From: Escherichia coli
Lineage (GTDB): Bacteria > Pseudomonadota > Gammaproteobacteria > Enterobacterales > Enterobacteriaceae
Strand: one strand, 5' to 3'
Assembly (NCBI RefSeq): GCF_024223415.1
Contig: NZ_CP100500.1
Length of the DNA: 64,000 bases
Shown here: positions 354-33,240 of the stretch, piece after piece
How positions within the stretch are numbered: the stretch's first letter is position 1
How the letters are laid out: every line of letters starts with the position of its first letter
Notes under the pieces: model-generated
The model's database searches: none
What the model saw: the letters and a program-made list of their open reading frames with translations, nothing else
What the model was told of the DNA's origin: nothing
Position numbers and translations under genes: made by a program

Positions 354-3220
<2,867 letters not shown>

Positions 3221-4287: not shown

Positions 4288-4443
4288 TGTAAACCTTAAC
4301 TTAACACTGTGATAGATATTAGATCATTGATGATAACCAATACAAGTCATACTATTACGCCGTTCTCGATATGAACACGAATGCCAGTTGCGGATAATAG
4401 AAATGATATTTAAATCTGTTTAGGCAAATCCCCGGAGCTTGAA

Positions 4444-13647: not shown

Positions 13648-15280
13648 CCTACTGATAGCGATGATAATCTTTGCGCTAATCTGGCCTGCAACCGCGCTCA
13701 GAGCGGCAGTGAGCAAAACAACCTGGGCGGATGCACCGGCACGCGAGTTTGTGTTTGTCGAAAACAACTCAGACGACAACTTTTTCGTCACTCCTGGCGG
13801 GGCGCTGGATCCGCGCCTGACCGGTGCCAACCGCTGGACCGGTTTAAAATACAATGGTTCAGGAACCATCTATCAGCAAAGCCTCGGCTACATTGATAAC
13901 GGTTACAACACCGGCCTTTATACCAACTGGAAGTTTGATATGTGGCTGGAAAATTCACCAGTTTCATCTCCTTTAACTGGCTTGCGCTGCATCAACTGGT
14001 ACGCTGGGTGTAATATGACCACCAGTCTTATCCTGCCGCAAACCACCGACGCCAGTGGATTTTATGGCGCGACGGTGACCAGCGGCGGCGCGAAGTGGAT
14101 GCACGGCATGTTGTCAGACGCGTTTTACCAGTATCTGCAACAAATGCCCGTCGGCAGCAGCTTTACAATGACCATCAATGCCTGCCAGACCTCTGTGAAC
14201 TATGACGCCAGCAGCGGCGCACGCTGTAAGGATCAGGCCTCCGGCAACTGGTATGTTCGCAACGTCACCCATACGAAAGCAGCAAATCTACGGTTGATAA
14301 ATACCCACTCGCTGGCGGAAGTATTTATCAACAGCGACGGAGTACCGACTCTGGGCGAAGGGAACGCCGACTGCCGGACGCAAACCATCGGCAGCCGTTC
14401 AGGATTAAGTTGTAAGATGGTTAACTATACCCTGCAAACAAACGGACTCAGCAACACCTCAATCCATATATTCCCGGCGATCGCCAACTCGTCGTTAGCC
14501 TCGGCCGTCGGGGCGTACGATATGCAGTTCAGTCTGAATGGCAGTTCATGGAAACCGGTGAGCAATACTGCCTATTACTACACCTTCAACGAGATGAAGA
14601 GCGCAGACTCGATCTATGTTTTCTTCTCGAGCAACTTCTTTAAGCAGATGGTGAACCTGGGGATCAGCGATATCAACACCAAAGATCTATTCAACTTTCG
14701 CTTTCAGAACACCACATCACCGGAGTCTGGCTGGTATGAATTTTCTACCTCCAACACGCTGATTATCAAACCCCGTGATTTCAGCATCAGTATTATCTCC
14801 GATGAATATACTCAGACACCGTCGCGGGAGGGATATGTTGGCAGCGGCGAGTCGGCACTCGATTTCGGCTATATCGTAACCACCAGCGGTAAAACAGCTG
14901 CCGACGAAGTGCTGATCAAGGTGACCGGACCCGCGCAGGTGATTGGCGGGCGCTCCTATTGTGTCTTCAGCTCCGATGACGGTAAGGCGAAAGTACCGTT
15001 CCCGGCGACACTTTCCTTTATTACCCGCAACGGAGCTACAAAAACCTACGATGCCGGGTGCGATGATAGCTGGCGGGATATGACCGATGCGCTGTGGTTG
15101 ACCACACCGTGGACTGATATCTCTGGCGAAGTGGGGCAGATGGATAAGACCACAGTCAAATTTTCGATTCCAATGGATAACGCCATTTCTCTGCGTACGG
15201 TAGATGATAACGGCTGGTTTGGCGAAGTCAGCGCTTCAGGAGAGATTCATGTTCAGGCGACGTGGCGTAACATTAACTAA
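13637..15280 (+). CDS. ecpD: common pilus tip adhesin
   Basis: 547-aa ORF with signal peptide; overlaps the ecpC stop. Confidence 0.85.
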
Positions 15281-15959
15281 GGCCCTGCTGACAGTGGTCT
15301 GTATGCTGGCGGCACCTTTGACACAGGCGATTTCGGTCGGCAATCTGACTTTTTCACTGCCGTCCGAGACTGACTTTGTCAGCAAACGTGTAGTGAATAA
15401 CAACAAAAGCGCACGGATATACCGTATTGCCATCAGTGCTATTGATAGCCCGGGCAGCAGTGAATTGCGCACCCGACCGGTGGATGGTGAACTGCTTTTC
15501 GCCCCCCGCCAGCTGGCGTTGCAGGCTGGTGAGAGCGAGTATTTTAAATTTTACTATCATGGTCCACGGGATAACCACGAGCGCTACTACCGGGTCTCAT
15601 TTCGCGAGGTCCCCACTCGTAACCAGACAAGACGCAGCCCAACCGGCGGCGAGGTCAGCACGGAGCCGGTGGTGGTGATGGATACCATTCTGGTAGTACG
15701 ACCACGTCAGGTTCAGTTTAAATGGTCCTTCGACCAGGTGACAGGAACGGTAAGTAACATCGGCAACACGTGGTTTAAGCTATTGATTAAACCAGGATGT
15801 GATTCGACCGAAGAGGAAGGCGATGCCTGGTATCTACGTCCGGGAGACGTTGTTCATCAGCCTGAGTTACGTCAGCCGGGGAATCATTATCTGGTCTATA
15901 ACGACAAATTCATTAAGATTAGCGATTCCTGTCCGGCTAAGCCCCCTTCGGCAGACTGA
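15249..15959 (+). CDS. ecpE: common pilus chaperone
   Basis: Start taken at the internal ATG 15249 ([11 protein letters not shown]...), preceded by a CAGGAGAG ribosome-binding site; signal peptide follows. Confidence 0.8.
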
Positions 15960-16271
15960 TACTTATCCATCGGTCGAGGGAAGAATTCCACCTCAGAGAC
16001 TCAAAAATCGTTTAAATGATGTGGAAGCGATCGTCAATATCACCTGTAACGATGGGCTTTCTCATATGCACACCATAGTGTTCAGGAGACACAGAAAGGT
16101 ACCAGGCAGCCTGCTAACGAGTGGTTTATTCACGAATTAGTACGTAAAATCGGTAACGGCTGGAAATCATTCAATACTCACACTATCGAAAGTTCCCCAG
16201 CCAACCGCGGTACGTTCTTACATACGATGTACCGCTGTTCTCTTTACGATTTATAGCTGTACTGGTGAATT

Positions 16272-16601
16272 ATGAGCAATCTGAATCCATGCATGACGTG
16301 TGGTGCCTGTTGTGCATTTTTCCGCGTCTCTTTTTACTGGGCCGAAGCCGACGATGCTGGCGGCACTATTCCCGCCAGGCTCACTGAACAAATATCCCCT
16401 TTTCACCGATGCATGAGCGGAACTAATCAGAAAAACCCCCGATGTATTGCCCTTGCAGGAACCCCGGGCAAAAATGCCTGCTGCACGATATATAAAAATC
16501 GATCGTCCACATGCAGAGAATTCGCCATGTCTGGTGAGAACGGAGTCGTCAATGAGGCTTGCAATCGTGCAAGGGCTAAATACGGGCTGACACCGTTATA
16601 A
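16272..16601 (+). CDS. ykgJ: cysteine-rich YkgJ-family protein (putative metal-binding)
   Basis: 109-aa ORF with CxxCxxCC motif ([11 protein letters not shown]); position matches K-12 order as recalled. Confidence 0.8.
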
Positions 16602-16624
16602 ACATACAATAATTAATTGCACTG

Positions 16625-16656
16625 CCCCGCCAGCGATAATAGCGGGGCTTCGTTTT
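16625..16656 (+). terminator. rho-independent terminator after ykgJ
   Basis: Hairpin CCCCGC-N-GCGGGG followed by a T-rich run, directly after the ykgJ stop. Confidence 0.55.
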
Positions 16657-16847
16657 CAGGGACAACAAAACCCGATACTTCTTCTATTTGCCAGCAACAA
16701 TGCCTCTCTTCTGTAGCGTTCTTCGGATCTACATCATCCTGAAGTGGCACGATATACTCACTGGCTATCTGCATCAGAATATAAAAAGCAATGTTTTTAA
16801 CCTATAAAAATGGCGCTGTATTTGCGCCATTTTTATCATTCAATGCA

Positions 16848-17462
16848 TTATCTGTTTGAGCCTAAAGGGATCTCAGGATCTGGCTCATGAGTAATTCTGT
16901 TTCGTAAATCTCTGCGAATAATTTCAATAGACCAGAACCAGACTAAATGTCCAAAAATTTCAGAGACATTCTCATACCACGGAAGATCAAACAGAGGTGG
17001 TGTCAGTCCCATGAGAGGGAATGAAATCATATGAACAAAAAGTTGGGCTAAAGCACCTGCCAGTAAGCCCTGCCAGAGTTTAATTTTTGGAAATACTTCA
17101 GCGACCACACAATAACCGACAGCAAACACTATCGAAAAGATAATGTGCGTAACACCAACCCAGTTAAAGACATGCCCGGCAAAGGTATAAACAGCCGCAT
17201 TGGGATCTGTCAGCCCCAGCCAGTCTCGAAGAAAAATATACGGAGGATTGAGAAAATTACGCGAGCAATCAATTTGCCCAGCAGCCCTGATTAATGATTC
17301 CGGGCCACACGCTGCATTAAACATATCCACCGGGCTACGTGGCGGCAATGGAACTTCAGCCCCCCACTTCACAAATGCGGAAACAACGCCAGCAATCAGC
17401 CCAATGAATGCAGCAAGACCATAACGTCTGCGGTTCGGTGGAGTTTGTTCAAATATATTCAT
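16848..17462 (-). CDS. yagU: inner-membrane protein YagU (DUF1440)
   Basis: 204-aa ORF with several hydrophobic helices; position between ykgJ and paoA. Confidence 0.8.
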
Positions 17463-17878
17463 ATCTACCCTGCTTGTACCATTATGTTATACACCTCTTT
17501 AGGAGTATTCATAAAACAAGGAAAATGTAAAGAACCGTATTGTTTTGTATAACAAGATGGTTGTCTAATCGCCAAAGAATATAAGCACCATCATTTCTCC
17601 CTATTTTTATATTAGAAGTGACATAGATTTGCAGGGTGATGCAGAGCTGACAATCACAGGTTTCCTTATCGGTTTTTGCATCGTACAACTCAAGCAATAA
17701 ACCAGCTCCCATCATCATCAACATCCCGGCGAACATGAATTTATTAGCCGGGCTCATAGCTGCATTCGCGTTTTAAGAATAATCCTCCTGCTGTCGCCGA
17801 CTATGCTTAACGTTTAAAAAAGCATCAGCACTCTCGCAACGCACTCTTATTTTCCCTTTAGAATACCGGAGGCCTGGT

Positions 17879-18568
17879 ATGAGCAACCAAGGCGAATACC
17901 CCGAAGATAATCGGGTTGGGAAGCACGAGCCGCACGATTTCAGTTTGACCCGTCGCGATCTGATTAAAGTGAGCGCCGCAACGGCGGCGACCGCCGTGGT
18001 TTATCCTCATTCTACGCTTGCGGCAAGCGTTCCGGCAGCTACACCCGCGCCAGAGATAATGCCCCTGACACTTAAGGTGAACGGCAAAACCGAGCAGCTT
18101 GAGGTGGATACCCGAACCACGCTACTGGACGCTTTGCGTGAAAATCTGCATTTGATCGGTACCAAGAAAGGTTGCGATCACGGACAGTGCGGAGCCTGTA
18201 CCGTGCTGGTCAATGGTCGCAGGCTTAATGCCTGCCTGACGCTTGCAGTCATGCATCAGGGGGCCGAGATCACCACCATTGAAGGCCTGGGTTCACCAGA
18301 TAATCTTCACCCCATGCAGGCGGCCTTTATCAAGCATGATGGCTTCCAGTGCGGCTACTGCACCTCCGGGCAAATTTGCTCATCAGTAGCGGTGCTAAAA
18401 GAGATTCAGGACGGCATTCCCAGTCACGTCACGGTCGATTTGGTTTCCCCTCCAGAAACAACTGCCGATGAGATCCGTGAACGTATGAGCGGCAACATCT
18501 GTCGCTGTGGTGCATACGCTAACATCCTTGCCGCCATTGAAGACGCTGCGGGGGAGATAAAATCATGA
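17879..18568 (+). CDS. paoA: periplasmic aldehyde oxidoreductase, 2Fe-2S subunit
   Basis: 229-aa ORF with twin-arginine signal ([16 protein letters not shown]) and two 2Fe-2S cysteine clusters ([11 protein letters not shown]; CGYCTSGQ). Confidence 0.9.
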
Positions 18569-19521
18569 AGGCGTTTACCTATGAACGAGTGAACACCCCC
18601 GCCGAGGCGGCACTTAGCGCTCAGCGCGTACCCGGCGCAAAATTTATCGCGGGCGGGACCAATCTGCTGGACCTGATGAAGCTGGAAATTGAAACGCCCA
18701 CCCACCTTATCGATGTGAACGGGCTCGGGCTCGATAAGATCGAAGTGACCGACGCGGGTGGGCTGCGCATCGGCGCACTGGTACGGAACACCGACCTGGC
18801 GGCTCACGAGCGCGTGCGTCGTGATTACGCGGTACTCTCCCGCGCCCTGCTCGCTGGCGCGTCTGGTCAGTTACGCAATCAGGCAACCACAGCAGGTAAT
18901 CTGCTCCAGCGCACGCGCTGCCCCTATTTTTACGACACCAATCAGCCCTGCAATAAGCGCCTGCCCGGGAGCGGCTGCGCGGCGCTTGAAGGCTTTAGCC
19001 GTCAGCACGCGGTGGTAGGCGTAAGCGAAGCCTGCATTGCCACCCATCCGAGCGATATGGCGGTCGCAATGCGGTTGCTGGATGCGGTGGTGGAAACCAT
19101 CACGCCGGAGGGAAAGACTCGCAGTATCACACTGGCTGATTTTTATCACCCACCGGGGAAAACGCCGCACATTGAAACCGCCCTGCTTCCCGGTGAGCTT
19201 ATCGTTGCGGTGACGTTACCTCCGCCGCTCGGCGGAAAACATATCTACCGTAAGGTGCGCGATCGCGCCTCCTACGCCTTTGCCCTGGTATCGGTCGCGG
19301 CGATTATTCAGCCTGACGGCAGCGGGCGCGTCGCGCTGGGCGGAGTAGCACATAAGCCCTGGCGCATTGAGGCTGCGGATGCTCAGCTATCCCAGGGGGC
19401 ACAGGCCGTGTATGACGCGCTGTTCGCCAGCGCCCATCCCACCGCTGAAAACACCTTTAAACTCCTGTTGGCGAAGCGAACGCTTGCCTCCGTACTGGCT
19501 GAAGCGAGGGCACAGGCATGA
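18565..19521 (+). CDS. paoB: periplasmic aldehyde oxidoreductase, FAD-binding subunit
   Basis: 318-aa ORF; start overlaps the paoA stop, indicating translational coupling. Confidence 0.9.
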
Positions 19522-21716
19522 AATTTGATAAACCCGCAGGGGAAAACCCGATCGATCAGCTGAAGGTTGTCGGTCGTCCCCATGACCGCATCGACGGACC
19601 GCTGAAAACTACCGGCACGGCACGCTACGCCTACGAATGGTTTGAAGAAGCTCCCAACGCCGCCTATGGCTATATCGTCGGTTCCGCCATTGCCAAAGGA
19701 CGCCTCACCGCCCTTGATACGGACGCCGCGCAAAAAGCGCCGGGCGTACTGGCTGTCATTACCGCCAGTAACGCCGGGGCACTCGGCAAAGGCGACAAAA
19801 ACACCGCCAGGCTGTTAGGCGGCCCCACTATTGAGCACTATCATCAGGCCATTGCGCTGGTAGTGGCCGAGACCTTCGAACAGGCACGAGCGGCGGCCTC
19901 GCTGGTGCAGGCGCACTATCGCCGTAATAAAGGAGCTTACTCCCTGGCGGACGAAAAACAGGCCGTCAGTCAGCCGCCGGAAGACACGCCCGACAAAAAC
20001 GTCGGTGACTTTGACGGGGCTTTCTCCTCCGCTGCGGTGAAGATTGATGCTACCTACACGACCCCGGACCAGAGCCATATGGCGATGGAGCCGCATGCCT
20101 CGATGGCCGTCTGGGATGGAAATAAGCTTACTCTCTGGACCTCAAATCAGATGATTGACTGGTGCCGCACCGATCTGGCAAAAACGCTGAAAGTGCCCGT
20201 GGAGAATGTGCGTATTATCTCCCCGTATATCGGCGGAGGGTTTGGCGGCAAGCTCTTCCTGAGAAGCGATGCGCTGCTGGCAGCCCTCGCCGCCCGAGCG
20301 GTGAAACGTCCGGTTAAAGTGATGCTCCCCCGCCCCACTATTCCCAATAACACCACGCACCGCCCCGCAACCCTTCAGCATCTGCGTATCGGTGCTGACC
20401 AGAGCGGGAAAATCACCGCTATCTCACATGAAAGCTGGTCCGGAAACCTGCCCGGCGGCACGCCGGAAACGGCGGTACAGCAAAGCGAATTACTCTACGC
20501 AGGGGCAAACCGTCATACCGGCCTGCGGCTCGCCACGCTTGATTTGCCGGAAGGGAATGCCATGCGTGCGCCCGGCGAAGCCCCCGGTCTGATGGCGCTC
20601 GAAATCGCGATCGACGAACTGGCGGAAAAAGTGGGCATCGATCCCGTCGAGTTTCGCATCCTGAATGACACTCAGGTTGACCCCGTCGACCCGACGCGCC
20701 GCTTCTCTCGCCGTCAGCTTATCGAGTGCTTGCGCACCGGAGCGGATAAATTTGGCTGGAAGCAGCGCAACGCCACACCCGGACAGGTGCGCGACGGGGA
20801 GTGGCTAGTCGGCCACGGCGTCGCGGCGGGCTTTCGCAATAATCTGCTGGAAAAATCGGGGGCTCGGGTTCACCTCGAACCAAACGGCACCGTTACCGTG
20901 GAAACGGACATGACCGACATTGGCACCGGCAGCTACACCATTCTGGCCCAGACGGCAGCGGAAATGCTTGGCGTACCGCTGGAGCAGGTTGCGGTTCACC
21001 TCGGCGATTCCAGTTTCCCGGTTTCTGCGGGTTCTGGTGGACAATGGGGCGCGAATACCTCCACCTCCGGCGTTTACGCCGCCTGTGTGAAGCTTCGCGA
21101 AATGATTGCCTCGGCAGTCGGGTTTGATCCTGAGCAGTCGCAGTTTGCCGACGGCAAGATTACCAACGGTACCCGAAGCGCCATGCTAAATGAGGCCACC
21201 GCAGGCGGCAGACTGACAGCGGAAGAGAGCATTGAATTCGGAACACTGAGCAAGGAGTACCAGCAGTCGACCTTTGCCGGGCATTTTGTGGAGGTCGGCG
21301 TGCATAGCGCGACGGGAGAAGTTCGGGTCCGGCGTATGCTCGCTGTGTGTGCTGCAGGACGCATCCTGAATCCGAAAACTGCACGCAGCCAGGTCATTGG
21401 CGCAATGACTATGGGCATGGGCGCGGCACTGATGGAGGAGCTGGCGGTGGATGACCGTTTGGGCTACTTCGTTAATCACGATATGGCGGGGTATGAGGTG
21501 CCGGTCCATGCGGATATCCCAAAACAGGAGGTGATTTTCCTGGATGATACCGACCCCATATCCTCCCCGATGAAGGCCAAAGGTGTCGGTGAGCTGGGCC
21601 TGTGCGGCGTGAGCGCGGCTATCGCCAACGCAGTGTATAACGCCACCGGTATTCGGGTACGCGATTATCCCATCACTCTGGATAAGCTGCTCGATAAGCT
21701 GCCTGATGTGGTTTAA
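19518..21716 (+). CDS. paoC: periplasmic aldehyde oxidoreductase, molybdopterin subunit
   Basis: 732-aa ORF of the xanthine-dehydrogenase large-subunit family; coupled to paoB. Confidence 0.9.
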
Positions 21717-21725
21717 GGAGGAACA

Positions 21726-22682
21726 ATGTCATACCCGCTTTTTGATAAAGACGAACACTGGCATAAGCCAGAGCAGGCGTTTCTCACCGATGACCACCGG
21801 ACCATTCTGCGCTTCGCCGTAGAGGCGCTAATGTCCGGTAAAGGAGCGGTGCTGGTGACGCTGGTGGAGATACGCGGCGGCGCGGCGCGCCCGCTCGGGG
21901 CGCAGATGGTGGTGCGCGAAGATGGTCGTTACTGCGGTTTTGTCTCTGGCGGCTGCGTGGAGGCCGCTGCCGCTTTTGAAGCGCTGGAGATGATGGGCTC
22001 AGGCCGCGATCGCGAAATTCGCTATGGCGAAGGTTCGCCGTGGTTTGACATCGTTCTGCCCTGCGGCGGAGGGATCACGCTGATGCTCCATAAACTACAC
22101 ACGGCACAGCCTCTGCTCGCCGTGCTGAACCGCCTGGAACAGAGAAAACCGGCGGGGCTGCGCTACGATCCGCAAGCACAATCGCTGGTGTGCCTGCCCA
22201 CGCAAACCCGGACGGGCTGGAATCTCAATGGCTTTGAGGTGGGGTTCAGGCCATGCGTCAGGCTGATGATTTACGGACGTTCTCTTGAGGCGCAGGCAAC
22301 CGCGAGTCTTGCAGCAGCCACAGGCTATGACAGCCATATCTTCGATCTTTTTCCGGCCTCAGCCAGCGCTCAGATCGATACCGATACGGCGGTCATTTTG
22401 CTGTGCCATGATCTCAACCGGGAGCTGCCAGTGTTGCAGGCCGCGCGAGAGGCAAAACCCTTTTATCTCGGCGCATTGGGCAGCTATCGAACCCACACTT
22501 TACGTCTGCAAAAGCTCCACGAGCTGGGATGGTCCAGGGAGGAGACAGCGCAAATCCGGGCACCCGTCGGGATATTCCCCAAAGCCCGGGATGCGCATAC
22601 TCTGGCACTCTCCGTGCTGGCAGAAGTCGCCTCTGTACGTCTCCATCAGGAGGAGGATTCATGCCTGCCCCCGTCGTCCTGA
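21726..22682 (+). CDS. paoD: XdhC-like molybdenum-cofactor insertion chaperone
   Basis: 318-aa ORF, last gene of the pao operon. Confidence 0.9.
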   Translation: MSYPLFDKDEHWHKPEQAFLTDDHRTILRFAVEALMSGKGAVLVTLVEIRGGAARPLGAQMVVREDGRYCGFVSGGCVEAAAAFEALEMMGSGRDREIRYGEGSPWFDIVLPCGGGITLMLHKLHTAQPLLAVLNRLEQRKPAGLRYDPQAQSLVCLPTQTRTGWNLNGFEVGFRPCVRLMIYGRSLEAQATASLAAATGYDSHIFDLFPASASAQIDTDTAVILLCHDLNRELPVLQAAREAKPFYLGALGSYRTHTLRLQKLHELGWSREETAQIRAPVGIFPKARDAHTLALSVLAEVASVRLHQEEDSCLPPSS

Positions 22683-22741
22683 TCCTTGCGGCCGGGCGTG
22701 GAAAGCGCTTTCTCACCTGCGGGGGAAATACCATAAATTAA
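22661..22741 (+). pseudogene. truncated nucleotidyltransferase (MobA/MocA-like) stub, 26 codons
   Basis: ATG with GGAGGAGG ribosome-binding site overlapping the paoD 3' end; encodes MPAPVVLILAAGRGKRF..., the N-terminal nucleotide-binding motif of MobA-like transferases, then stops after 26 codons. Confidence 0.5.
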
Positions 22742-22860
22742 GAGAAAAATCTGCAGTAGCCGTTTTAGAAAATCACCTAAATCGTTTAAAAGAGCGCCCT
22801 ACCCATAGTGGTTGCTCATCGCCTTGTGTAACTTATTCAGCAACGCGCGCCCTCGCCGGA

Positions 22861-24054
22861 CTAAAGCGCACCGGCCTTCTGGCGTGCGGTAACAAAGGTC
22901 AGTACGCCCGCGCAAAGGAGCAGCACACTACTCATGGCAAACGTACTCTGCCAGCCAAGGCGGTCAAACACGATGCCTCCTGCCGTTGATCCAAGGGCGA
23001 TTGAGAGCTGAATCACCGCGACCATGAGCCCGCCTCCGGCTTCGGCGTTGTCAGGCAACGTACGCGCAATCCATGTCCACCATCCGGTTGGCGCGGCGGT
23101 GGCCAGCATGCCCCAGAGTCCTAACAGCAGCGAGACCGTCCAGACGTGATGCCCGGTAAGCATCAGACCGATGGCAATGACGGCCATCAGTCCGGGTATG
23201 GCCATCAGCGTGGGGTAGAATTTTCTGTTGAGAAATGTCGAAACAACCAGCGTGCCAATAAAACCGGCCACGCCGATAATCAGCAAAATCAACGACAAGC
23301 CTAAGGAATTAACCCGTGTCACCGACTCCAGAAATGGGCGCACATAGGTGAATAGCGCAAACTGCCCCATGAAAAACAGGCCACAAGCTATCATGCCGAC
23401 CACGACCATGCGGCGGCTAAATAAGCGGAATACCGCGCCAAATGACGCGTGGCTTTTATTCGCATCCATGCTGGGCAGACTAATACACTGCCAGATAAAG
23501 GCGACAACCGCGATAGGCACCAGGCACAAGAAAGCGCCTCGCCATCCGACCGTAGCCCCCAGATAGCTTCCCAGCGGTGCGGCCACGACCGTTGCCAGCG
23601 CATTACCGGCGTTGAAAATCGCCAGCGCACGCGTGACCTGATGCTGCGGCACCAGACGAATCGCCGTTGCCGCTGACATCGACCAGAATCCGCCAATGGC
23701 CACACCAATCATCGCACGACCGACCATATACATCAGATAATTGGAAGCCAGCGCAATAATAAGCCCCGATACGGCCATCAGAACCGTCATCCCCAGCAGC
23801 AGGAACTTACGATTCATCTTTCCAGCTAGCGTTGAAAGCGTCAGGCTGGTCAGAACCGCCAGCGCGCCGGAGATAGCAATCCCCTGCCCTGCAAGCCCCT
23901 CCGTCACGCCTAAATCGCGGGTAATCGGCGTGAGCAGGCTGACGGGCATAAATTCAGAAGCAATCAGCACAAACACGCACAGGGTCATGGCAAAAATACC
24001 GCCCCAGTATGCGCGCTGATGATGAGGTGATGGTGTTTGGCTTAGTGTCGACAT
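22861..24054 (-). CDS. MFS transporter (12 predicted helices)
   Basis: 397-aa hydrophobic ORF with major-facilitator-type loop motifs. Confidence 0.85.
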   Translation of the reverse strand: MSTLSQTPSPHHQRAYWGGIFAMTLCVFVLIASEFMPVSLLTPITRDLGVTEGLAGQGIAISGALAVLTSLTLSTLAGKMNRKFLLLGMTVLMAVSGLIIALASNYLMYMVGRAMIGVAIGGFWSMSAATAIRLVPQHQVTRALAIFNAGNALATVVAAPLGSYLGATVGWRGAFLCLVPIAVVAFIWQCISLPSMDANKSHASFGAVFRLFSRRMVVVGMIACGLFFMGQFALFTYVRPFLESVTRVNSLGLSLILLIIGVAGFIGTLVVSTFLNRKFYPTLMAIPGLMAVIAIGLMLTGHHVWTVSLLLGLWGMLATAAPTGWWTWIARTLPDNAEAGGGLMVAVIQLSIALGSTAGGIVFDRLGWQSTFAMSSVLLLCAGVLTFVTARQKAGAL

Positions 24055-24129
24055 AGTGAAATTTCACAAAGATCAGGATAAAAGCCACCAGCCTATGGCC
24101 GGTGGCTTTGCATCAATTCAGGAGAGGTT

Positions 24130-25266
24130 TTATTTCAGTTTGGTCTGGAAAAATTGTTCGAACTTTGCGAAAGGTATTTTTCCGGCCACGTTATCGTACA
24201 GGTCCACGTGATTTGCCCCTGGTACCACTACCAGCTCTTTGTCGTTACTGCCAACCGCCTTGTAAGCATCTTCAGCAAAATAGCGTGAATGCGCTTTCTC
24301 ACCGGTCACAATCAGCGTCGGGATGGTGATTTCACTGGCGTAGCTCAACAGCGGCATATTCATAAATGACAGCGGCATCGTTGCCGTCCACGCCCCGGTA
24401 GAGTTAACGGAACGTTCGTGGAAGCCGCGCGGCATGCGATAGTAGTCAAAGAACTCTTTCAGTACCGGATGAGGATTTGCCGGCAGCGTTTCTGGCAGAA
24501 TACGCTCGCCCGCACTGACCTTGCCGTTGCTATCGACATTAATATCATGACCACCGTGAGCGAACGTTCCGCTCTGCGCATCCTTCCAGCGCTGTTCATT
24601 CAGATATTGCAGAACAGCACGACGGTCGGCGGTAGAATAACGGTCTTCGCCATCCCCCACACCATGGCCCATCGCCCGGCTCATGTCATACATCACGCTG
24701 GTAGCAACCGCTTTAACGCGGGTATCCATCGCCGCGTCGTTCAGCGCCATGCCGCCCCAGCCACAAATACCGAGCAGCCCGATACGGTTGCGATCTACCT
24801 CTTTTTGCAGCCCTAAGAAATCCACCGCCGCGCTGAAATCTTCAGTGTTGATATCCGGTGAGGCGACGTTTCGCGGATAGCCGCCGCTTTCCCCGGTGTA
24901 AGAAGGATCGAACGCCAGGGTAACAAACCCTCGTTCCGACAGCGTCTGCGCATACAAGCCGCTGGATTGCTCTTTCACCGCGCCAAATGGCCCACTGACC
25001 GCAATCGCCGCCAGCTTGCGATCGCCACGGTCTTTAGGCAGGTAAAGATCGCCCACTAAGGTGATGCCATATCGGTTCGGGAACGATACTTTACGATGAT
25101 CGACTTTCTGGCTCTCGGCGAACGTTTTATCCCATTTATCTGTCATGGACACAGGGGCATTAGGATTGGTTGAATCAGCATAACTCATTGTCGTGACTCC
25201 ACTTAATGATGCGAAAAGCAGCATGGCCGGCATCGCGGTTTTTAGCGTTCGGGTGAAGGCTTTCAT
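24130..25266 (-). CDS. secreted alpha/beta hydrolase (dienelactone-hydrolase-like)
   Basis: Start at the ATG with GGGGA ribosome-binding site (MKAFTRTLKTAMPAMLLFASLSGVTTMSYA signal peptide); IGLLGICGWGG and KELVVVPGANHVDLYD motifs; homologous to the ORF at 4444-5364. Confidence 0.8.
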   Translation of the reverse strand: MKAFTRTLKTAMPAMLLFASLSGVTTMSYADSTNPNAPVSMTDKWDKTFAESQKVDHRKVSFPNRYGITLVGDLYLPKDRGDRKLAAIAVSGPFGAVKEQSSGLYAQTLSERGFVTLAFDPSYTGESGGYPRNVASPDINTEDFSAAVDFLGLQKEVDRNRIGLLGICGWGGMALNDAAMDTRVKAVATSVMYDMSRAMGHGVGDGEDRYSTADRRAVLQYLNEQRWKDAQSGTFAHGGHDINVDSNGKVSAGERILPETLPANPHPVLKEFFDYYRMPRGFHERSVNSTGAWTATMPLSFMNMPLLSYASEITIPTLIVTGEKAHSRYFAEDAYKAVGSNDKELVVVPGANHVDLYDNVAGKIPFAKFEQFFQTKLK

Positions 25267-25452
25267 AAAAATCCCCATAAAAAACAACAGAGAGATACAG
25301 GTTTCCGACGGACAACGCTGCGGTGCTTTACTTTGATGGGGTCATTATAGTGAGCAGAATTAGTGCTGATTAGGGGGCGATTAATGCTAAGATTAATACC
25401 ATATTGTTATAAATTAATGCGAAGATTGCCGGCATGAAGGGGGGATGTTTCA

Positions 25453-26337
25453 ATGGCGAAAAGGGAGAACTACAACGAGCTGTACCTGTTTATGCAGGTG
25501 GTGCGAGAAGGCAGCTTTACCGCAGCGGCTCAGCGGCTGGGTCTTGCTCAGTCAGGAGTCAGCCGTTCTGTTCGCGAGCTTGAAGAAAGGCTGGGCGTCC
25601 AGCTGCTGGTGCGCACCACGCGTAAACTGTCGCTGACGCAAGCAGGCGAGCAGCTCTACCAGAAGACGGCATCTGGATTTGAAATGTTAGATCTTGGGCT
25701 TGCCACGCTGGCGCACTATCGAGAGACGCCCTCCGGCACGGTGCGTATCAATGCCAGCCAGCACGCGATTGATAAATGCCTGCTGCCAAAGCTGGCGGTA
25801 TTTAAACAGCGATATCCTGATATCCGGCTTGAACTGATAAATGAGAGCCGGTTCGTCGATATCATCGAGGAAAGATTCGATGCAGGTGTCCGCCTGGGGC
25901 CTGAAGTCGGCCAGGGCATGGTCGCGGTACGCATCACGCCCGATATGGAGATGGCAATTGTGGGGACTCCGGAACATTTTCGTCGCTATGGTTTTCCGCA
26001 AACTCCGGCGGATTTAAAGGCGCATCCCTGTATCGCCTATCAGTTTGCCGACGGCAGCGTATACCAGTGGGAACTCAATCAGGATGATAAAAAAATCACT
26101 CATCGCCCTGAAGGGCAATGGGCCCTATCCGACAGCTATATGGAAGCAGAAGCCGCCCGGCTGGGCCTCGGATTGGCCTATGTTCCTGTTGAACTGGTCG
26201 CGGATGATTTAGAACACGGTAAGCTTATCAGAGTGTTGCAGCGTTACAGCCTGCGAATGGAGGGATTGTTTCTCTATTACCCTCATCGCAACGTCTCCCC
26301 CGCTCTGCGGATGGTCATTGATACATTGAAAATCTGA
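25453..26337 (+). CDS. LysR-family transcriptional regulator
   Basis: 294-aa ORF with LysR helix-turn-helix; divergent from the secreted hydrolase gene. Confidence 0.85.
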   Translation: MAKRENYNELYLFMQVVREGSFTAAAQRLGLAQSGVSRSVRELEERLGVQLLVRTTRKLSLTQAGEQLYQKTASGFEMLDLGLATLAHYRETPSGTVRINASQHAIDKCLLPKLAVFKQRYPDIRLELINESRFVDIIEERFDAGVRLGPEVGQGMVAVRITPDMEMAIVGTPEHFRRYGFPQTPADLKAHPCIAYQFADGSVYQWELNQDDKKITHRPEGQWALSDSYMEAEAARLGLGLAYVPVELVADDLEHGKLIRVLQRYSLRMEGLFLYYPHRNVSPALRMVIDTLKI

Positions 26338-26562
26338 ACGTTAACAACGACCGACTCTTCACTGTGCAATATTGTGTCAGGTAGTCACTCTGCGTTCAAT
26401 TCCAGGGGCCGCTTTGAGCGAGAAAGAGCGGACTTATCTGTACAAGGGGACTATCCAGCAATGGAGATCACCCAAAAGAAAAAACTACCTGGCTCCCTCA
26501 ACAACCTTCATCCGGGAATTTAGCCTCAATCAACATTTTTATATCTGTCAGGTTACTTCATT

Positions 26563-26836
26563 ATGAAAACCGATCAATATCGTTGTTTTTGTTGTAATAA
26601 TAGAATACGCGTATTTATTCCTCCATTTCTATTAATAACGGCCATAAACTGTTCACTTCACTGATATTTAAAATATGCATCCTTTTCCTGCTTTTCAAGT
26701 TGTTCAGCGGCGTAAGAAAACGTATTAAATATGAATTCGACGATTTAACCATTTCTGTCTGATTGGTAATCATCTGTGATTAATGCTGGTCTATTGATTA
26801 CGCCAGCATTAACCGCTTAGGGATGTATTCTTCCTG
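26563..26836 (+). repeat. degenerate copy of the ykgR region and the ykgO-downstream hairpin element
   Basis: 26576-26683 is about 93 percent identical to 7266-7373 (3' half of ykgR plus flank); 26734-26836 is about 75-80 percent identical by eye to 8087-8189. The ykgM-ykgO module between them in copy 1 is absent here. Confidence 0.7.
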
Positions 26837-27047
26837 ATCATATACAGCCCTCGAAAAAGAGAGAAAATAAAACTGTGTCCAATATTACTCTACCACTCCA
26901 GACCGAAGCATCGGTAGAATTAGCAGAACGACTGGTACAATAGATTGGGATAGCGTCATTTGTCAGGTATTCCATTGCCTGACAAATGACAATTTTGAGT
27001 CAATAGACGTGCTTCTTGATCATGTCTTAAAAATTATACCATGAGCC

Positions 27048-27326
27048 TTATGAAGCATCATTTTTACTGACTGGTGTTAACTTTGCTATCATATAAACTC
27101 TGTTCTTAAAAAACGCGCCCAGAATTTTATATGATTTCCCTTGTTTTTCTGCCTGTAAAGAAATTTCTTTTTCAGTGCTGTTAATGGTTGAACCGACGGC
27201 AGTAATCGTTTTGGCGACGCTACTGAATGATAATAAAGACAGTGCAACCACAACAATTAAAGAACAGATAGTATTCACGCTAATTCTCCTGACAATTGAG
27301 AGGATGAGTTTTATATATAAAGGCAT
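27048..27326 (-). CDS. small secreted protein, possibly DUF1471 (YhcN/BhsA-like)
   Basis: 92-aa ORF with hydrophobic leader (ICSLIVVVALSLLSFSSVA) and a short mature domain with KQGKSYKILG resembling DUF1471; start codon uncertain. Confidence 0.4.
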   Translation of the reverse strand: MPLYIKLILSIVRRISVNTICSLIVVVALSLLSFSSVAKTITAVGSTINSTEKEISLQAEKQGKSYKILGAFFKNRVYMIAKLTPVSKNDAS

Positions 27327-27491
27327 TAAACATGAGTCATGTTTACTTCCTGTGAAAATAATCTTTCTGTAATTAAACCTTCATCTCCTTCGGGGTGAGC
27401 AATACATAATGCATCTTGCTATGAAAAACACAGGGATATATAAATCTTCCTTCTGACCTATTTAATAAAACGTGAATGTAAAAGTTATTCT

Positions 27492-28214
27492 TCAGTTTGC
27501 AGATGCAGTGGGTCTGATGGTAATTTCGGTTGTATCAACGCTTTCGGGAGATTCAATAATATGCCTTACCGCACGGGCAATATCCGCAGGTTGAAGTGCA
27601 ACAGAACGGTAGGCGTCCATTGCCTTCATGGTTTCCATATGGGTAATTGTTGAAGCCAGTTCACTTTCGACAACGCCAGGATTTACGCAGGTCACACGGA
27701 TTTTCGAGCTTTCCTGCCGTAAGCCATCAGAAATAGCCCGTACTGCAAATTTGGATGCACAATAGACTGCGCCTGTGGGCACAACAGAAAGGGCACCAAT
27801 AGAACCAAGATTGATTATCTGACCGGAACCCTGTGCTTCCATCACCGGAAGTACAGCGCCAATTCCCCACAGTACACCTTTGATATTCACGTCAATAGTG
27901 AGCTCCCATTCATCTTGTTTTCCTGCTGCAAGCGGTGAAAGCGGCATAACGCCCGCATTATTGATAAGAACATCAACTCGCCCCCAGCTATCCAGCGCTG
28001 CTTGCACGAAATCGGCCATGGACTGTCGGTCTGTGACATCCAACTCCCGCGCTTTAGCAATTCCTCCTGCGCGGCAAATTTCGGTTGCAATGGCTTCGAT
28101 ACGCTCAACTCTGCGTGCTCCCAGTAAAACCTTTGCACCTGTCATTCCAAGCTCTCTGGCAATACCTTCCCCAATACCACTTGATGCGCCGGTAATTAAT
28201 ATGACCTTATCCAT
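27492..28214 (-). CDS. short-chain dehydrogenase/reductase
   Basis: Start at the ATG with AAGGAG ribosome-binding site (MDKVILITGASSGIGEG Rossmann motif); YCASK catalytic motif present. Confidence 0.85.
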   Translation of the reverse strand: MDKVILITGASSGIGEGIARELGMTGAKVLLGARRVERIEAIATEICRAGGIAKARELDVTDRQSMADFVQAALDSWGRVDVLINNAGVMPLSPLAAGKQDEWELTIDVNIKGVLWGIGAVLPVMEAQGSGQIINLGSIGALSVVPTGAVYCASKFAVRAISDGLRQESSKIRVTCVNPGVVESELASTITHMETMKAMDAYRSVALQPADIARAVRHIIESPESVDTTEITIRPTASAN

Positions 28215-28312
28215 TACGTTCTCCTTCAAATGTGTTCGGAGAGAGAATAGAACTTTATGATTGGTTCCAGTATCCTGCTTTCAATGTACTCAGTGGTTAG
28301 CGGCATTAAACA

Positions 28313-29212
28313 ATGAAAATCGATCTTAATCTTTTACCCATTTTTATCGCGGTAGCAGAAGAGAGTAATTTTAGTAAAGCCGCCGCACGGCTGGGCGTTA
28401 CCCGTTCAGCGGTCAGTCAGGGAATAAGACGCCTTGAAGATGCATTCGGGACAATGCTTGTAATGCGGACCACGCGCTCAGTTAATTTGACAGAAGCGGG
28501 AGAACGGCTGCATAAATCGCTGTCATTACCTTTATCCGGTATTGAGACAGCGTTCGAAGAGATGGTTTCTGACCATGTGCCACGCGGACTTCTCAGAATC
28601 GCGGTGAGGTCGATAGCAGAAGAATTTCTTTCAGGTCCGCTAATCGCTTCGTTTGCAGCTGCCAATCCAGCCGTTACGCTTGATATTGTTGTAACGGATG
28701 AGGAATTCGATATCGTGGCCGCAGGTTACGATGCTGGCGTAAGGCTCGGAGAGGTCATTGAAAAAGACATGATTGCTGTGCCCCTTACCGGCAGGCAGCG
28801 TGAAATGGTCGTTGCCTCTCCCTCCTATCTCGCAGCCAACAGCACACCTGTTCATCCGCGTGAACTTGTGAATCATAAGTGTATCGGCTGGCGTCAATCC
28901 CCGGATGTTGCGCCTTATCGCTGGCCATTTGAAGAAAACGGGAGAGTTTTCGACCTTGCGATTGAACCGCAGATTACGACTAATGATCTGCGTCTGATGT
29001 TGAGGCTGGCTCTTGCCGGCGGAGGAATAACAATTGCCACTCAGGAAACTTTCAGGCCATATATTGAAAGCGGTAAGCTTGTATCTCTGCTTGATGACTT
29101 TCTTCCACAATTTCCGGGCTTCTATCTGTATTTCCCACAGCGTCGCAATATTGCACCAAAGCTCCGCGCCCTGATTGACCACGTCAAGGAATGGCGGCAG
29201 CAATTGGCTTAA
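28313..29212 (+). CDS. LysR-family transcriptional regulator
   Basis: 299-aa ORF with LysR helix-turn-helix; divergent from the SDR gene. Confidence 0.85.
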   Translation: MKIDLNLLPIFIAVAEESNFSKAAARLGVTRSAVSQGIRRLEDAFGTMLVMRTTRSVNLTEAGERLHKSLSLPLSGIETAFEEMVSDHVPRGLLRIAVRSIAEEFLSGPLIASFAAANPAVTLDIVVTDEEFDIVAAGYDAGVRLGEVIEKDMIAVPLTGRQREMVVASPSYLAANSTPVHPRELVNHKCIGWRQSPDVAPYRWPFEENGRVFDLAIEPQITTNDLRLMLRLALAGGGITIATQETFRPYIESGKLVSLLDDFLPQFPGFYLYFPQRRNIAPKLRALIDHVKEWRQQLA

Positions 29213-29338
29213 ATGTCTGCACCTGCATTGCCTGATGTCAGAACAGTATTTTGATTAATTGCCAGGGTTACAATGGCATAAATACGGCACAGGAGGAAAC
29301 GTGGTGTATTTAAATATGGGGTAACTACTTGATTTAAA

Positions 29339-29414
29339 TGGTGCCGATAATAGGAGTCGAACCTACGACCTTCGCATTACGAATGCGCTGCTCTACCAAC
29401 TGAGCTATATCGGC
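29339..29414 (-). tRNA. thrW: tRNA-Thr (anticodon CGU)
   Basis: Reverse complement reads GCCGATATAGCTCAGTTGGTAGAGCAGCGCATTCGTAATGCGAAGGTCGTAGGTTCGACTCCTATTATCGGCACCA, a 76-nt cloverleaf with CGT anticodon and encoded CCA. Confidence 0.95.
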
Positions 29415-29528
29415 CCTGAAAGGACATGTTCACGAACGTGAATCACGGTGGACAAGGTTAAAACTAACCGGGCGATGCGTCAATGGCCTTGTGAATCAAA
29501 TGGCTACTTTTGCATCACCCGGTTTTAT

Positions 29529-30782
29529 TTACGCACGAATGGTGTAATCACCAATGCCGATCCACTTGTAAGTGGTCAGTGCTTCCAGCCCCATTGGGCC
29601 ACGCGCGTGGAGTTTTTGTGTGCTTACCGCCACTTCCGCACCCAGACCAAACTGGCCGCCATCGGTAAAACGCGTAGAGGCGTTAACGTAAACAGCGGAC
29701 GAATCCACTTCGTTAACAAAACGCTGGGCGTTGCGCATATCGCGGGTCAGGATCGCATCGGAGTGTTGCGTGCCGTGTTCACGAATATGGGCGATGGCAT
29801 CGTCAAGATCGCTGACGATTTTGACGTTCAAATCTAATGACAGAAACTCATCGTCATACTCTTCGGCTTTAACCGCCACCACCTTCGCAGGGCCTGTCTG
29901 CAACTGCGCCAGCGCAGCTGCATCTGCGTGTAACGTCACGCCGCTTTCCGCCATTTGTTTGCTTAATGCGGGCAGGAAGCTATCGGCGATGTTTTTATTC
30001 ACCAGCAACGTTTCTACCGTATTACATGTGCTCGGACGCTGAGTTTTCGCGTTGACGATCACTTTTAATGCTTCAGCGATCTCTGCACTTTCATCAACGT
30101 AAATATGGCATACGCCTATACCACCTGTGATCACCGGGATCGTCGACTGTTCGCGGCACAGTTTATGCAAACCAGCCCCGCCGCGCGGGATCAGCATGTC
30201 GATGTATTTATCCATACGCAGCATTTCACTGACCAGCGCACGGTCAGGATTATCAATCGCCTGCACGGCACCCGCCGGTAAGCCACAGGATTTCAGGGCG
30301 TCCTGAATCACCGCCACCGTTGCAGCGTTAGTGCGACAGGTTTCTTTGCCACCGCGCAGGATCACCGCGTTACCTGTTTTCAGGCACAGCGAAGCGACAT
30401 CAACCGTCACGTTCGGGCGCGCTTCATAAATCACGCCAATAACCCCCAGCGGTACGCGACGACGCTCAAGACGCAGGCCGCTGTCCAGTACGCCGCCATC
30501 GATTACCTGCCCCACGGGATCGGCGAGGTTGCACACCTGACGTACATCGTCGGCAATGCCTTTCAGCCGTGCGGGCGTCAGTGCCAGACGGTCAAGCATC
30601 GCTTCGCTAAGGCCATTGGCACGCGCGTCAGCAACATCCTGGGCGTTAGCGTTGAGGATGATTTCGCTTTGTGCTTCCAGTTCATCGGCGATTTTTTCCA
30701 GCACGCGATTTTTTTCGCGGCTGGAGAGTTGCGCTAATTTATACGAGGCTTGCTTCGCGGCAATGCCCATTTGTTCCAGCAT
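29529..30782 (-). CDS. proA: gamma-glutamyl phosphate reductase
   Basis: 417-aa ORF recognised as ProA from the translation; adjacent to proB. Confidence 0.95.
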
Positions 30783-30793
30783 CGGCCAGCTCC

Positions 30794-31897
30794 TTAACGG
30801 GTAATCATGTCATCACGGTGAACGGCAACCGGGCCGTATTCATATCCCAGTATTGCATCAATTTCTTGCGAGTGGTGTCCGGCAATACGGCGTAATGCAT
30901 CGCTGTTGTAACGACTGACACCGTGGGCGATATCGCGACCTTCGAGGTTGCAAATGCGGATGACTTCACCACGCGAGAAATTGCCAGTCACGCTTTTAAT
31001 GCCTTTCGGCAACAGGGAGCTGCCGCGTTCAAGAATGGCGGCGGTTGCCCCTTCATCTACCGTGATTTCACCCGCAGGCGGCGCACCGAAAATCCAGCGT
31101 TTACGGTTTTCAAGCGGAGTCGCCTGGGCATGGAACAGCGTACCGACGGAAATGCCTTCCATCACATCACCAATAACGCCCGGCTTGCTGCCCGCGGCAA
31201 TAATGGTGTCGATACCTGCACGGCAAGCCACGTCAGCGGCCTGCAATTTGGTACTCATGCCGCCAGTTCCGAGGCCTGAAACGCTGTCACCGGCAATCGC
31301 GCGCAGTGCGTCATCAATGCCGTAAACATCTTTAATCAGTTCTGCCTGCGGATTGCTGCGCGGGTCAGCGGTATACAAACCTTTTTGATCGGTCAGCAGC
31401 AACAGTTTATCGGCACCCGCCAGAATCGCCGCCAGCGCAGAAAGGTTATCGTTATCGCCGACCTTAATCTCTGCCGTAGCGACAGCATCGTTCTCATTGA
31501 TTACCGGAACGATATTGTTATCGAGCAGCGCACGCAGGGTGTCGCGGGCGTTCAGGAAGCGTTCACGGTCTTCCATATCAGCACGGGTCAGCAGCATTTG
31601 CCCGACGTGAATGCCATAAATCGAAAACAGCTGTTCCCACAGTTGAATCAGTCGACTCTGCCCTACCGCCGCCAGCAGTTGTTTCGAGGCGATAGTCGCT
31701 GGCAGTTCCGGGTAACCCAGGTGCTCACGTCCGGCGGCGATCGCGCCCGACGTCACAATAACAATCCGATGCCCGGCGGCATGTAACTGCGCGCACTGGC
31801 GAACAAGTTCAACGATATGGGCACGGTTCAGACGGCGCGATCCGCCTGTTAGCACACTGGTGCCGAGTTTTACCACCAGCGTCTGGCTGTCACTCAT
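30794..31897 (-). CDS. proB: glutamate 5-kinase
   Basis: Start at the internal ATG giving the 367-aa protein [16 protein letters not shown]...; the track ORF has a 29-codon upstream extension. Confidence 0.95.
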
Positions 31898-32085
31898 GAT
31901 TCTCTGCCATTCAATTTTTGGAAAAATGATATCAAACGAACGTTTTAGCAGGACTGTCGTCGGTTGCCAACCATCTGCGAGCAAAGCATGGTGTTTTGTT
32001 GCGCGGGATCAGCAAGCGTAGCGGCAGTTGTTTACGTTTTTATTACAGATTTACTAAATTACCACATTTTAAGAATATCATTAAT

Positions 32086-32104
32086 CTGTAATATATCTTT
32101 AACA
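32086..32104 (+). promoter_or_regulatory. Pho box (PhoB binding site) of the phoE promoter
   Basis: CTGTAATATATCTTTAACA about 80 bp upstream of the phoE start; matches the CTGTxATA-type PhoB repeat class. Confidence 0.6.
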
Positions 32105-32184
32105 ATCTCAGGTTAAAAACTTTCCTGTTTTCAACGGGACTCTCCCGCTGAATATTCGCGCGTTAATTAAAATCAGGAATGAAA

Positions 32185-33240
32185 ATGAAAAAGAGCACTC
32201 TGGCATTAGTGGTGATGGGCATTGTGGCATCTGCATCCGTACAGGCCGCAGAAATATATAACAAAGACGGTAATAAACTGGATGTCTATGGCAAAGTTAA
32301 AGCCATGCATTATATGAGTGATAACGACAGTAAAGATGGCGACCAGAGTTATATCCGTTTTGGTTTTAAAGGCGAAACACAAATTAACGATCAACTGACT
32401 GGTTATGGTCGTTGGGAAGCAGAGTTTGCCGGTAATAAAGCAGAGAGTGATACTGCACAGCAAAAAACGCGTCTCGCTTTTGCCGGGTTGAAATATAAAG
32501 ATTTGGGTTCTTTCGATTATGGTCGTAACCTGGGCGCGTTGTATGACGTGGAAGCCTGGACCGATATGTTCCCGGAATTTGGTGGCGACTCCTCGGCGCA
32601 GACCGACAACTTTATGACCAAACGCGCCAGCGGTCTGGCGACGTATCGGAACACCGACTTCTTCGGTGTTATCGATGGCCTGAACTTAACCCTGCAATAT
32701 CAAGGGAAAAACGAAAACCGCGATGTTAAAAAGCAAAACGGCGATGGCTTCGGCACGTCATTGACATATGACTTTGGCGGCAGCGATTTCGCCATTAGTG
32801 GGGCCTATACCAACTCAGATCGCACCAACGAGCAGAACCTGCAAAGCCGTGGCACAGGCAAGCGTGCAGAAGCATGGGCTACAGGTCTGAAATACGATGC
32901 CAATAATATTTATCTGGCAACTTTTTATTCTGAAACACGCAAAATGACGCCAATAACTGGCGGCTTTGCCAATAAGACACAGAACTTTGAAGCGGTCGCT
33001 CAATACCAGTTTGATTTTGGTCTGCGTCCATCGCTGGGTTATGTCTTATCGAAAGGGAAAGATATTGAAGGTATCGGTGATGAAGATCTGGTCAATTATA
33101 TCGATGTCGGGGCTACATATTATTTCAACAAAAATATGTCAGCGTTTGTTGATTATAAAATCAACCAACTGGATAGCGATAACAAATTGAATATTAATAA
33201 TGATGATATTGTCGCGGTTGGCATGACCTATCAGTTTTAA
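32185..33240 (+). CDS. phoE: phosphate-starvation-inducible outer-membrane porin
   Basis: Start at [21 protein letters not shown] signal peptide; ends with the porin C-terminal YQF. Confidence 0.95.

Follow-up and report, generated by a model that had tools for sequence, protein, structure and literature searches.

An empty thrW attachment site beside a strain-variable paoD-thrW block in Escherichia coli

The tRNA gene thrW ranks with the tDNA hotspots which are targeted most often (PMC7545054), and has been described as empty in the E. coli strains W, B and Crooks (PMC3032704). In the 64-kb stretch of E. coli DNA analysed here (the window), thrW is followed by a block of genes reaching to paoD, which raises the question of whether the attachment site is really unoccupied and whether the block stands in place of the K-12 prophage, as a sequence-only reading had proposed. 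The gene order was taken from the open reading frames, Pfam and the RefSeq annotation of the 100%-identical genome NCTC10444, and the content between thrW and paoD proved to be the one which that reading had given. The features of the locus are as follows.

21726-22682, plus strand: paoD (open reading frames, Pfam, RefSeq annotation of NCTC10444)
22732-28878, no strand: span bounded by two CATAA pentamers (22732-22736 and 28874-28878), from BLAST against K-12
22845-26425, no strand: module 1, the MFS-hydrolase-LysR1 cassette, with about 92% DNA identity to a Kluyvera genomosp. 1 locus
22861-23988, minus strand: MFS transporter, 375 aa from the RefSeq start (Pfam MFS_1)
24130-25188, minus strand: predicted secreted alpha/beta hydrolase of the PA2218/YcjY family, 352 aa (Pfam, PDB matches)
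25453-26337, plus strand: LysR1, a LysR-family regulator, 294 aa (Pfam HTH_1 and LysR_substrate)
26567-26844, plus strand: decayed duplicate of the ykgR-ykgM-ykgO-ykgL segment (self-comparison of the window, tblastn)
26567-26635, plus strand: truncated ykgR, a partial YkgR pseudogene in RefSeq
26955-26990, no strand: terminator-like inverted repeat with a 15-bp stem, downstream of the small-protein gene
27048-27326, minus strand: small protein with a signal-peptide-like N-terminus, annotated at 92 aa ('hypothetical protein' in RefSeq)
27492-28214, minus strand: SDR-family oxidoreductase, 240 aa from the RefSeq start (Pfam adh_short, 2.3e-54; RefSeq)
28313-29212, plus strand: LysR2, the thrW-proximal LysR-family regulator, 299 aa (Pfam HTH_1 and LysR_substrate)
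29213-29338, no strand: 126-bp spacer from the thrW 3' end to the LysR2 stop codon, equal to the flank beyond attR in K-12
29328-29387, minus strand: attB core (three-way alignment of the window, K-12 attL and K-12 attR)
29339-29414, minus strand: thrW, intact tRNA-Thr(CGU) (ARAGORN; Rfam tRNA, 71.8 bits)
29529-30782, minus strand: proA (open reading frames, Pfam, RefSeq annotation of NCTC10444)

ARAGORN found a single tRNA in the window, tRNA-Thr(CGU), a complete and undisrupted gene which is identical to the thrW of K-12 at 76/76 positions. The presence of CP4-6 at this tRNA in K-12, stated in the sequence-only reading, was confirmed (262898-297205), its start in the RefSeq record corresponding to thrW position 28. 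When the three sequences were aligned, the window was found to correspond to the left side of the K-12 attL continuing into the right side of the K-12 attR, and the thrW attB of the window is therefore intact and empty, as had been claimed. The attB core comprises tRNA positions 28-76 and some 10 nt downstream; in K-12, CP4-6 has a copy of it at either end, and the window has a single copy. Since the duplicable tRNA sequence occurs only once, the site has either never been occupied or been freed of an earlier element by precise excision.

At thrW, recombination by the tyrosine integrases which P4-like satellites, prophages and ICEs encode takes place inside the 3' part of the gene or immediately after it, and duplicates 18-60 nt of that sequence. 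A further copy of the tRNA 3' end was found in the 64-kb window neither by exact search nor with up to 3 mismatches allowed, and the local (Smith-Waterman) alignment for a degenerate copy scored 14-15, as compared with 12-17 for shuffled queries. Among the block ORFs, no integrase or phage-specific families were recognized with Pfam and PHROGs; the PHROGs matches were to generic LysR, MFS and SDR families, plus a weak integrase match of the 92-aa protein (E=0.006) which was judged to be due to chance. In addition, tblastn of the whole window with three integrases of elements residing at thrW (IntF, an O157 P4-like integrase and an ICE integrase) gave no significant match, BLAST found nothing in the window resembling the final 1.2 kb of CP4-6 (K-12 296000-297205), the search around the block for flanking repeats or the ends of IS elements returned short chance matches only, and Rfam at a relaxed E-value reported the tRNA alone between 22 and 30 kb. 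Thus, the description of thrW followed by a LysR gene, with neither integrase nor phage genes, was borne out, and none of the findings which would speak against an empty site (tRNA 3'-end duplicate, integrase or phage remnant) was encountered in the window.

The proposal that the block lies in place of the K-12 prophage did not hold, since the block is located outside the attachment site, beyond attR, and its loss from K-12 is a separate matter. K-12 and the window have the same tRNA, proBA side, 465 bp beyond attR and pao operon, whereas the 34.3-kb CP4-6 inserted at tRNA position 28 of K-12 is missing from the window. Those first 465 bp beyond thrW, yagP included, are kept in K-12 at 97% identity (97.1% in the alignment to window 29390-28874), and BLAST of K-12 296000-330000 against the window showed that K-12 lacks window positions 22737-28873. 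The deletion, with its junction read by eye, amounts to 6,142 bp between the CATAA pentamers (a 5-nt microhomology), and it removed the MFS, hydrolase and LysR1 genes, the ykgR-like debris, the small protein, the SDR gene and the N-terminal 187 codons of LysR2. What remains is yagP, a truncated LysR gene joined 54 nt after paoD, which is the C-terminal part of LysR2 from 28874 onwards and its sole survivor in K-12; it is colinear with the full-length gene of the window, and encodes the substrate-binding part only, with no HTH domain. A literature search on the origin of yagP gave nothing relevant. According to this comparison, K-12 and about half of the sequenced E. coli would have lost the 6,142 bp in one illegitimate recombination between the pentamers, leaving yagP, and CP4-6 would have been acquired by K-12 independently. 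K-12 thus differs from the window by the gain of a prophage and, independently of it, a 6.1-kb deletion, rather than by one replacement. As a separate observation, the window carries intact copies of genes which are reduced to pseudogene fragments in K-12, namely yagP here and ykgP elsewhere in the window.

The independence of both features could be established on a sample of 5,426 complete E. coli genomes. The thrW junction was intact in 947 of the 5,426; the block, rightly called strain-variable in the earlier reading, was whole in 423/5,426, and any part of it was found in 951/5,426; the K-12 deletion junction occurred in 2,683/5,426, genomes with an empty thrW among them. In the paoD-thrW region of the O157:H7 and O145:H28 genomes, all seven features of the block recur in unchanged order, with 98.2-98.5% identity, but in the O157:H7-type genomes thrW is occupied by a P4-like satellite and additional prophage DNA, where the window has none; the O157-type strain 132 has the full block together with a P4-like satellite and a prophage. 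The O145:H28 genomes, with 100% query coverage across the tRNA, appear to share the empty thrW of the window. Since the block coexists with integrated elements in O157:H7-type strains, and the deletion with an empty thrW in others, prophage occupancy of thrW and presence of the block have been shown to be independent polymorphisms. The attB of strains W, B and Crooks, an intact thrW followed by chromosomal flank, does not differ in anything essential, although the window also keeps the full block, a combination with the intact junction which is rare (63/5,426). An empty thrW with the full six-gene block is ordinary strain-to-strain variation, all of it of a known kind.

A different possibility is to regard the 6.5-kb block as an old genomic island which integrated at thrW and has since lost its integrase and distal repeat, the site being fossil-occupied. 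In fact, the block is missing from most E. coli, it contains an AT-rich segment (36-39% G+C), it adjoins a tDNA hotspot as an island would, and the similarity of module 1 to the Kluyvera locus indicates that at least part of it moved horizontally. However, no integrase, mobility gene or tRNA 3'-end direct repeat was found even at relaxed stringency, and the Kluyvera-like cassette stops at about 26425, leaving 2.9 kb between it and thrW. Moreover, the genomes without the block do not display a clean empty site, but yagP following paoD through the 5-nt microhomology, which marks a deletion and not a vacant insertion site. Where thrW is occupied, attR is situated between the tRNA and the block, which means that to the integrases the side of the block is chromosome. 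The old island is largely refuted by the way in which the deletion junction is built, and is considered improbable.

The age of the block must also be considered, since the K-12 state could be the older one, with the block recently gained in a few lineages via homologous recombination of the flanking core DNA. In favour of this, the K-12 junction represents the majority state, and the paoD-thrW interval is plainly a hotspot of exchange, with AbiE plus a Dpt/Dnd defence island or an ICE in other strains. Nevertheless, yagP is a LysR C-terminal fragment which cannot be the ancestor of the intact LysR2, and the divergence of the block between phylogroups equals that of the backbone: block identity falls within a 95-99% band in 912 of the 951 genomes carrying it, with differences of 1.5-3% between lineages, and the core genes flanking it, at 97-98.8% identity, show a similar divergence. 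A recent gain is therefore held to be very improbable, even more so than the island. The resemblance in divergence to the flanking core genes argues for a long residence, and the block probably predates the diversification of E. coli. Altogether, we consider it highly probable that the window represents an intact empty thrW attB beside an old, dispensable stretch of backbone between thrW and paoD, with the K-12 deletion and CP4-6 as independent events.

Regarding its content, the block is a mosaic in which two modules, each with a LysR gene, are parted by AT-rich pseudogene debris. The G+C content is 55-57% over the MFS and hydrolase genes and some 48-50% in the rest, the stretch at 26.4-27.6 kb, with 36-39%, being compositionally atypical. 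In one module, LysR1 is divergent from the secreted PA2218/YcjY-type hydrolase and the MFS transporter, the LysR1 and hydrolase starts lying 264 bp apart; in the other, LysR2 is divergent from the SDR oxidoreductase and the small secreted protein, with the LysR2 and SDR starts separated by 98 bp. Both LysR proteins have the HTH_1 domain at the N-terminus, and the closest NCBIfam model for LysR1 is YafC, below cutoff; given the usual behaviour of the family, they may be expected to regulate their divergent neighbours. The hydrolase matches the PDB entries 2hdw (E=1e-123) and 5xb6, which is YcjY (E=1e-43), and the MFS transporter is NepI-like, scoring 290 bits with the NCBIfam NepI model against an equivalog cutoff of 584. 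The 92-aa protein bears a sub-threshold similarity to the BhsA/YdgH (DUF1471) family (NCBIfam BhsA, E=0.003; Pfam YdgH_BhsA-like, E=0.1). The promoter and terminator scan gave counts not above those of shuffled sequences, except for the strong hairpin at 26955-26990.

The debris between the modules was read by tblastn with the K-12 YkgR, YkgO and YkgL proteins. What remains of ykgR is its final 23 codons; ykgO is represented by some 11 codons from its 3' end, and ykgL by its 3' end, which has an in-frame stop, whereas ykgM and the greater part of ykgO are gone. Positions 26567-26689 are 90% identical to window 7257-7379, and positions 26702-26844 are 76% identical to window 8055-8197. This may be the trace of an old segmental duplication that involved the zinc-responsive ykgMO ribosomal-paralogue locus.

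Module 1 has relatives outside the genus. The Kluyvera and Enterobacter LysR-hydrolase-MFS cassettes share its three genes and their arrangement, with 88-97% protein identity, but they are situated elsewhere, with no tRNA within 10 kb; the trio of Enterobacter cloacae DSM 26481, for instance, does not adjoin a tRNA. Among the hydrolase matches listed (one genome per species) were Kluyvera, Enterobacter, Hafnia and many distant phyla, and none from E. albertii, E. fergusonii or other Escherichia. The closeness in DNA to the Kluyvera locus and the high G+C content suggest that this part of the block is horizontally mobile and not strictly ancestral, module 1 having probably been exchanged with a Kluyvera/Enterobacter-like lineage. 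Furthermore, since a Kluyvera-like trio is found here and an AbiE plus Dpt/Dnd defence island in other strains, it is conceivable, though rather doubtful, that the paoD-thrW interval constitutes an integrase-independent cargo-exchange hotspot beside the integrase hotspot, small cassettes of regulator, enzyme and transporter genes, as well as defence islands, being swapped via recombination in the flanking core genes.

As for the site itself, the same thrW sequence hosts elements in most other E. coli, the junction being disrupted in about 82% of the genomes, and from this identity thrW would be expected to be a working integration target in this strain as well. The result is of little weight beyond bookkeeping, and provides the frequencies of the states of a classic integration hotspot over 5,426 complete genomes. 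It also means that the yagP 'gene' of K-12 is the stump of a full LysR regulator, which corrects a tempting misreading, and that strains arranged like the window would offer a naive thrW attB for integration experiments.

A single tRNA was predicted in the 64 kb, a tRNA-Thr(CGU) with which Rfam concurs and whose 76 nt are all identical to K-12 thrW. The gene content listed by the sequence-only reading for the interval between thrW and paoD was matched exactly by open reading frames, domains and annotation:

paoC and paoD (paoD at 21726-22682), 6.6 kb from the 3' side of thrW
22861-23988, minus strand, MFS transporter
24130-25188, minus strand, secreted alpha/beta hydrolase
25453-26337, plus strand, LysR regulator (LysR1)
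26567-26635, truncated ykgR
27048-27326, minus strand, 92-aa protein with a signal-peptide-like N-terminus
27492-28214, minus strand, SDR oxidoreductase
28313-29212, plus strand, second LysR regulator (LysR2), its end separated by 126 bp from the 3' end of the tRNA
29339-29414, minus strand, tRNA-Thr(CGU), thrW
proA, proB and phoE, on the 5' side of thrW

The genes from the MFS transporter to LysR2 are referred to as the block. Profile searches gave only sub-threshold similarity of the 92-aa protein to BhsA/YdgH. Both LysR genes are transcribed divergently from the genes beside them (start-to-start distances of 98 bp and 264 bp), and therefore the usual LysR wiring, with each regulator controlling its adjacent divergent genes, would be the likeliest. 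The window is chromosomal DNA of E. coli. In nucleotide comparison, 6.9 kb across the locus matched NCTC10444 at 100% identity, and O78 strain 3, GPEC1446 and KV7 with at most one mismatch.

The thrW attachment site is an unoccupied attB, as the sequence-only reading had proposed. Its statement that K-12 carries the CP4-6 cryptic prophage at this tRNA agrees with the RefSeq annotation, where the element spans 262898-297205 with its first base within thrW. The decisive evidence for the empty site came from a three-way alignment with the two prophage ends, in which the window equals attL upstream of the core and the DNA beyond attR downstream of it. The core covers tRNA positions 28-76 and some 10 nt more; K-12 has a copy of it at each end of CP4-6 and the window has one in all, which is what defines attB. 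The reported lack of integrase and phage genes was also upheld. No integrase or phage-specific family was found among the block ORFs with Pfam and PHROGs, the PHROG matches being to generic LysR, MFS and SDR families plus one at E=0.006, regarded as chance, and tblastn of three integrases from thrW elements of other strains (K-12 IntF, an O157-type P4-like integrase and an ICE integrase) gave no match in the whole window. The tRNA 3' end occurs once in the window at 0-3 mismatches, and the search for a partial duplicate yielded local-alignment scores of 14-15, against 12-17 for shuffled queries. No IS ends or flanking repeats bracketing the block were found.

The same reading placed the block where K-12 has its prophage, and this did not hold. 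On alignment, K-12 beyond attR is colinear with window 29390-28874 (97.1% identity) and then jumps to 22736, continuing through paoD and paoC as far as ykgP (98.0% identity); window 22737-28873 is therefore missing from K-12. The pentamer CATAA stands at both breakpoints (22732-22736 and 28874-28878), which implies that 6,142 bp were deleted when illegitimate recombination joined these 5 nt of microhomology. K-12 yagP, annotated as a LysR substrate-binding-domain protein overlapping the end of paoD, is by this alignment the C-terminal stump of the 299-aa LysR2 intact in the window. Furthermore, the O157:H7-type strain 132 holds the complete block and, beyond LysR2, a P4-like satellite (primase-helicase, Icd-like, Psu, Ogr/Delta, tyrosine integrase) with further prophage DNA, so that block and integrated elements coexist, while several genomes match window 28874-32500 as one unbroken piece, carrying the K-12 deletion and nothing at thrW. 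The block is therefore no alternative occupant of the site, and K-12 differs from the window by two separate events, the insertion of a prophage and the deletion of 6.1 kb.

The frequency of these states was counted as follows.

Counts over 5,426 complete E. coli genomes
K-12 deletion junction: 2,683 (49%)
any part of the K-12-absent 6.1 kb: 951 (17.5%)
at least 80% of that 6.1 kb in one place: 423 (7.8%)
contiguous thrW-flank junction: 947 (17.5%)
half of the block nearest thrW running without a break into thrW-proA-proB, like the window: 63 (1.2%)

In the literature, thrW is already listed as one of the tDNA hotspots that are used most often in E. coli (PMC7545054), and strains W, B and Crooks as having nothing integrated there (PMC3032704). 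In one variant, an ICE with Trb transfer genes abuts a short LysR2 remnant; in another, ECA64 (13054-22064 of its comparison locus), an AbiEi/AbiEii toxin-antitoxin pair and a DptFGH (Dpt/Dnd) phosphorothioation-dependent restriction island replace the SDR side, the thrW-proximal half. The tRNA-side match boundaries vary by strain (window about 29271, 29321, 29334 and 29338), which suggests several element or integrase classes with distinct crossover points, one of which seems to lie some 68 bp downstream of the tRNA. The stretch of tRNA that thrW elements duplicate on their far side measures about 18 nt in some and about 49-52 nt in others. In PS_131_S11, RefSeq marks a 112-nt 'tRNA-Ser' (10539-10650 of its comparison locus) that adjoins a short remnant of LysR2 and an ICE integrase; the 3' half of thrW lies within it, and so it looks like a mis-called attachment-site hybrid.

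Judged by its matches, the block is a mosaic. Module 1, MFS-hydrolase-LysR1 (about 22845-26425), shares about 92% DNA identity with Kluyvera genomosp. 1 strain L2 (8850-12330 of its comparison locus), with sharp edges just outside the three genes and no mobility gene in sight. Core genes of Escherichia and Kluyvera are expected to be far less alike, and this identity, together with the 55-57% G+C of the MFS and hydrolase genes, indicates that the cassette was probably exchanged horizontally. The trio also occurs in Enterobacter cloacae DSM 26481; among the matches listed, close relatives have no tRNA within 10 kb of the hydrolase locus. The hydrolase shares its family with Pseudomonas PA2218 (PDB 2hdw, E=1e-123) and E. 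coli YcjY (5xb6), the sole solved structures of its relatives being labelled hypothetical or uncharacterized. Identities of 54-67% appear, among the matches listed, in Bacteroidota, Firmicutes, Campylobacterota, cyanobacterial-lineage gut MAGs and a Methanobacterium MAG; by sequence comparison, the family is unusually conserved, with identities of 55% or more across many phyla.

Next to module 1 is an AT-rich stretch (36-39% G+C). It holds two pieces of a decayed duplicate of the ykgR-ykgM-ykgO-ykgL segment, the segment itself standing in the window at a distance of 19 kb:

26567-26689, 90% identical to window 7257-7379
26702-26844, 76% identical to window 8055-8197

All of ykgM and the greater part of ykgO are absent between them, and a stop codon lies in frame within the ykgL piece. 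At the full locus, K-12 YkgL aligns with ykgL (8116-8342, minus strand) in two frames (residues 1-60 and 55-75), and the gene appears frameshifted in this strain. A second segment missing from K-12 (6.3 kb, window 355-6658) runs from eaeH-side DNA to ykgR. Its genes code for two aldo-keto reductases, a pair of LysR regulators, a YcjY-like alpha/beta hydrolase (32% identity to that of the block) and an OYE-type NADH:flavin oxidoreductase, of which the K-12 pseudogene ykgP is no more than the final 29 codons.

Among the hydrolase matches listed in a species-level scan with one genome per species, no other Escherichia species was found. Between E. coli lineages the block diverges by 1.5-3%, with 912 of the 951 genomes that carry any part of it in the 95-99% identity band, and the flanking core genes diverge about equally. 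This likeness, together with a majority absent state that is a gene-truncating deletion, points to a block long resident in E. coli and then lost, rather than recently gained. The elements of the thrW-paoD locus are all of known kind, and RefSeq genomes already carry annotations for its genes.
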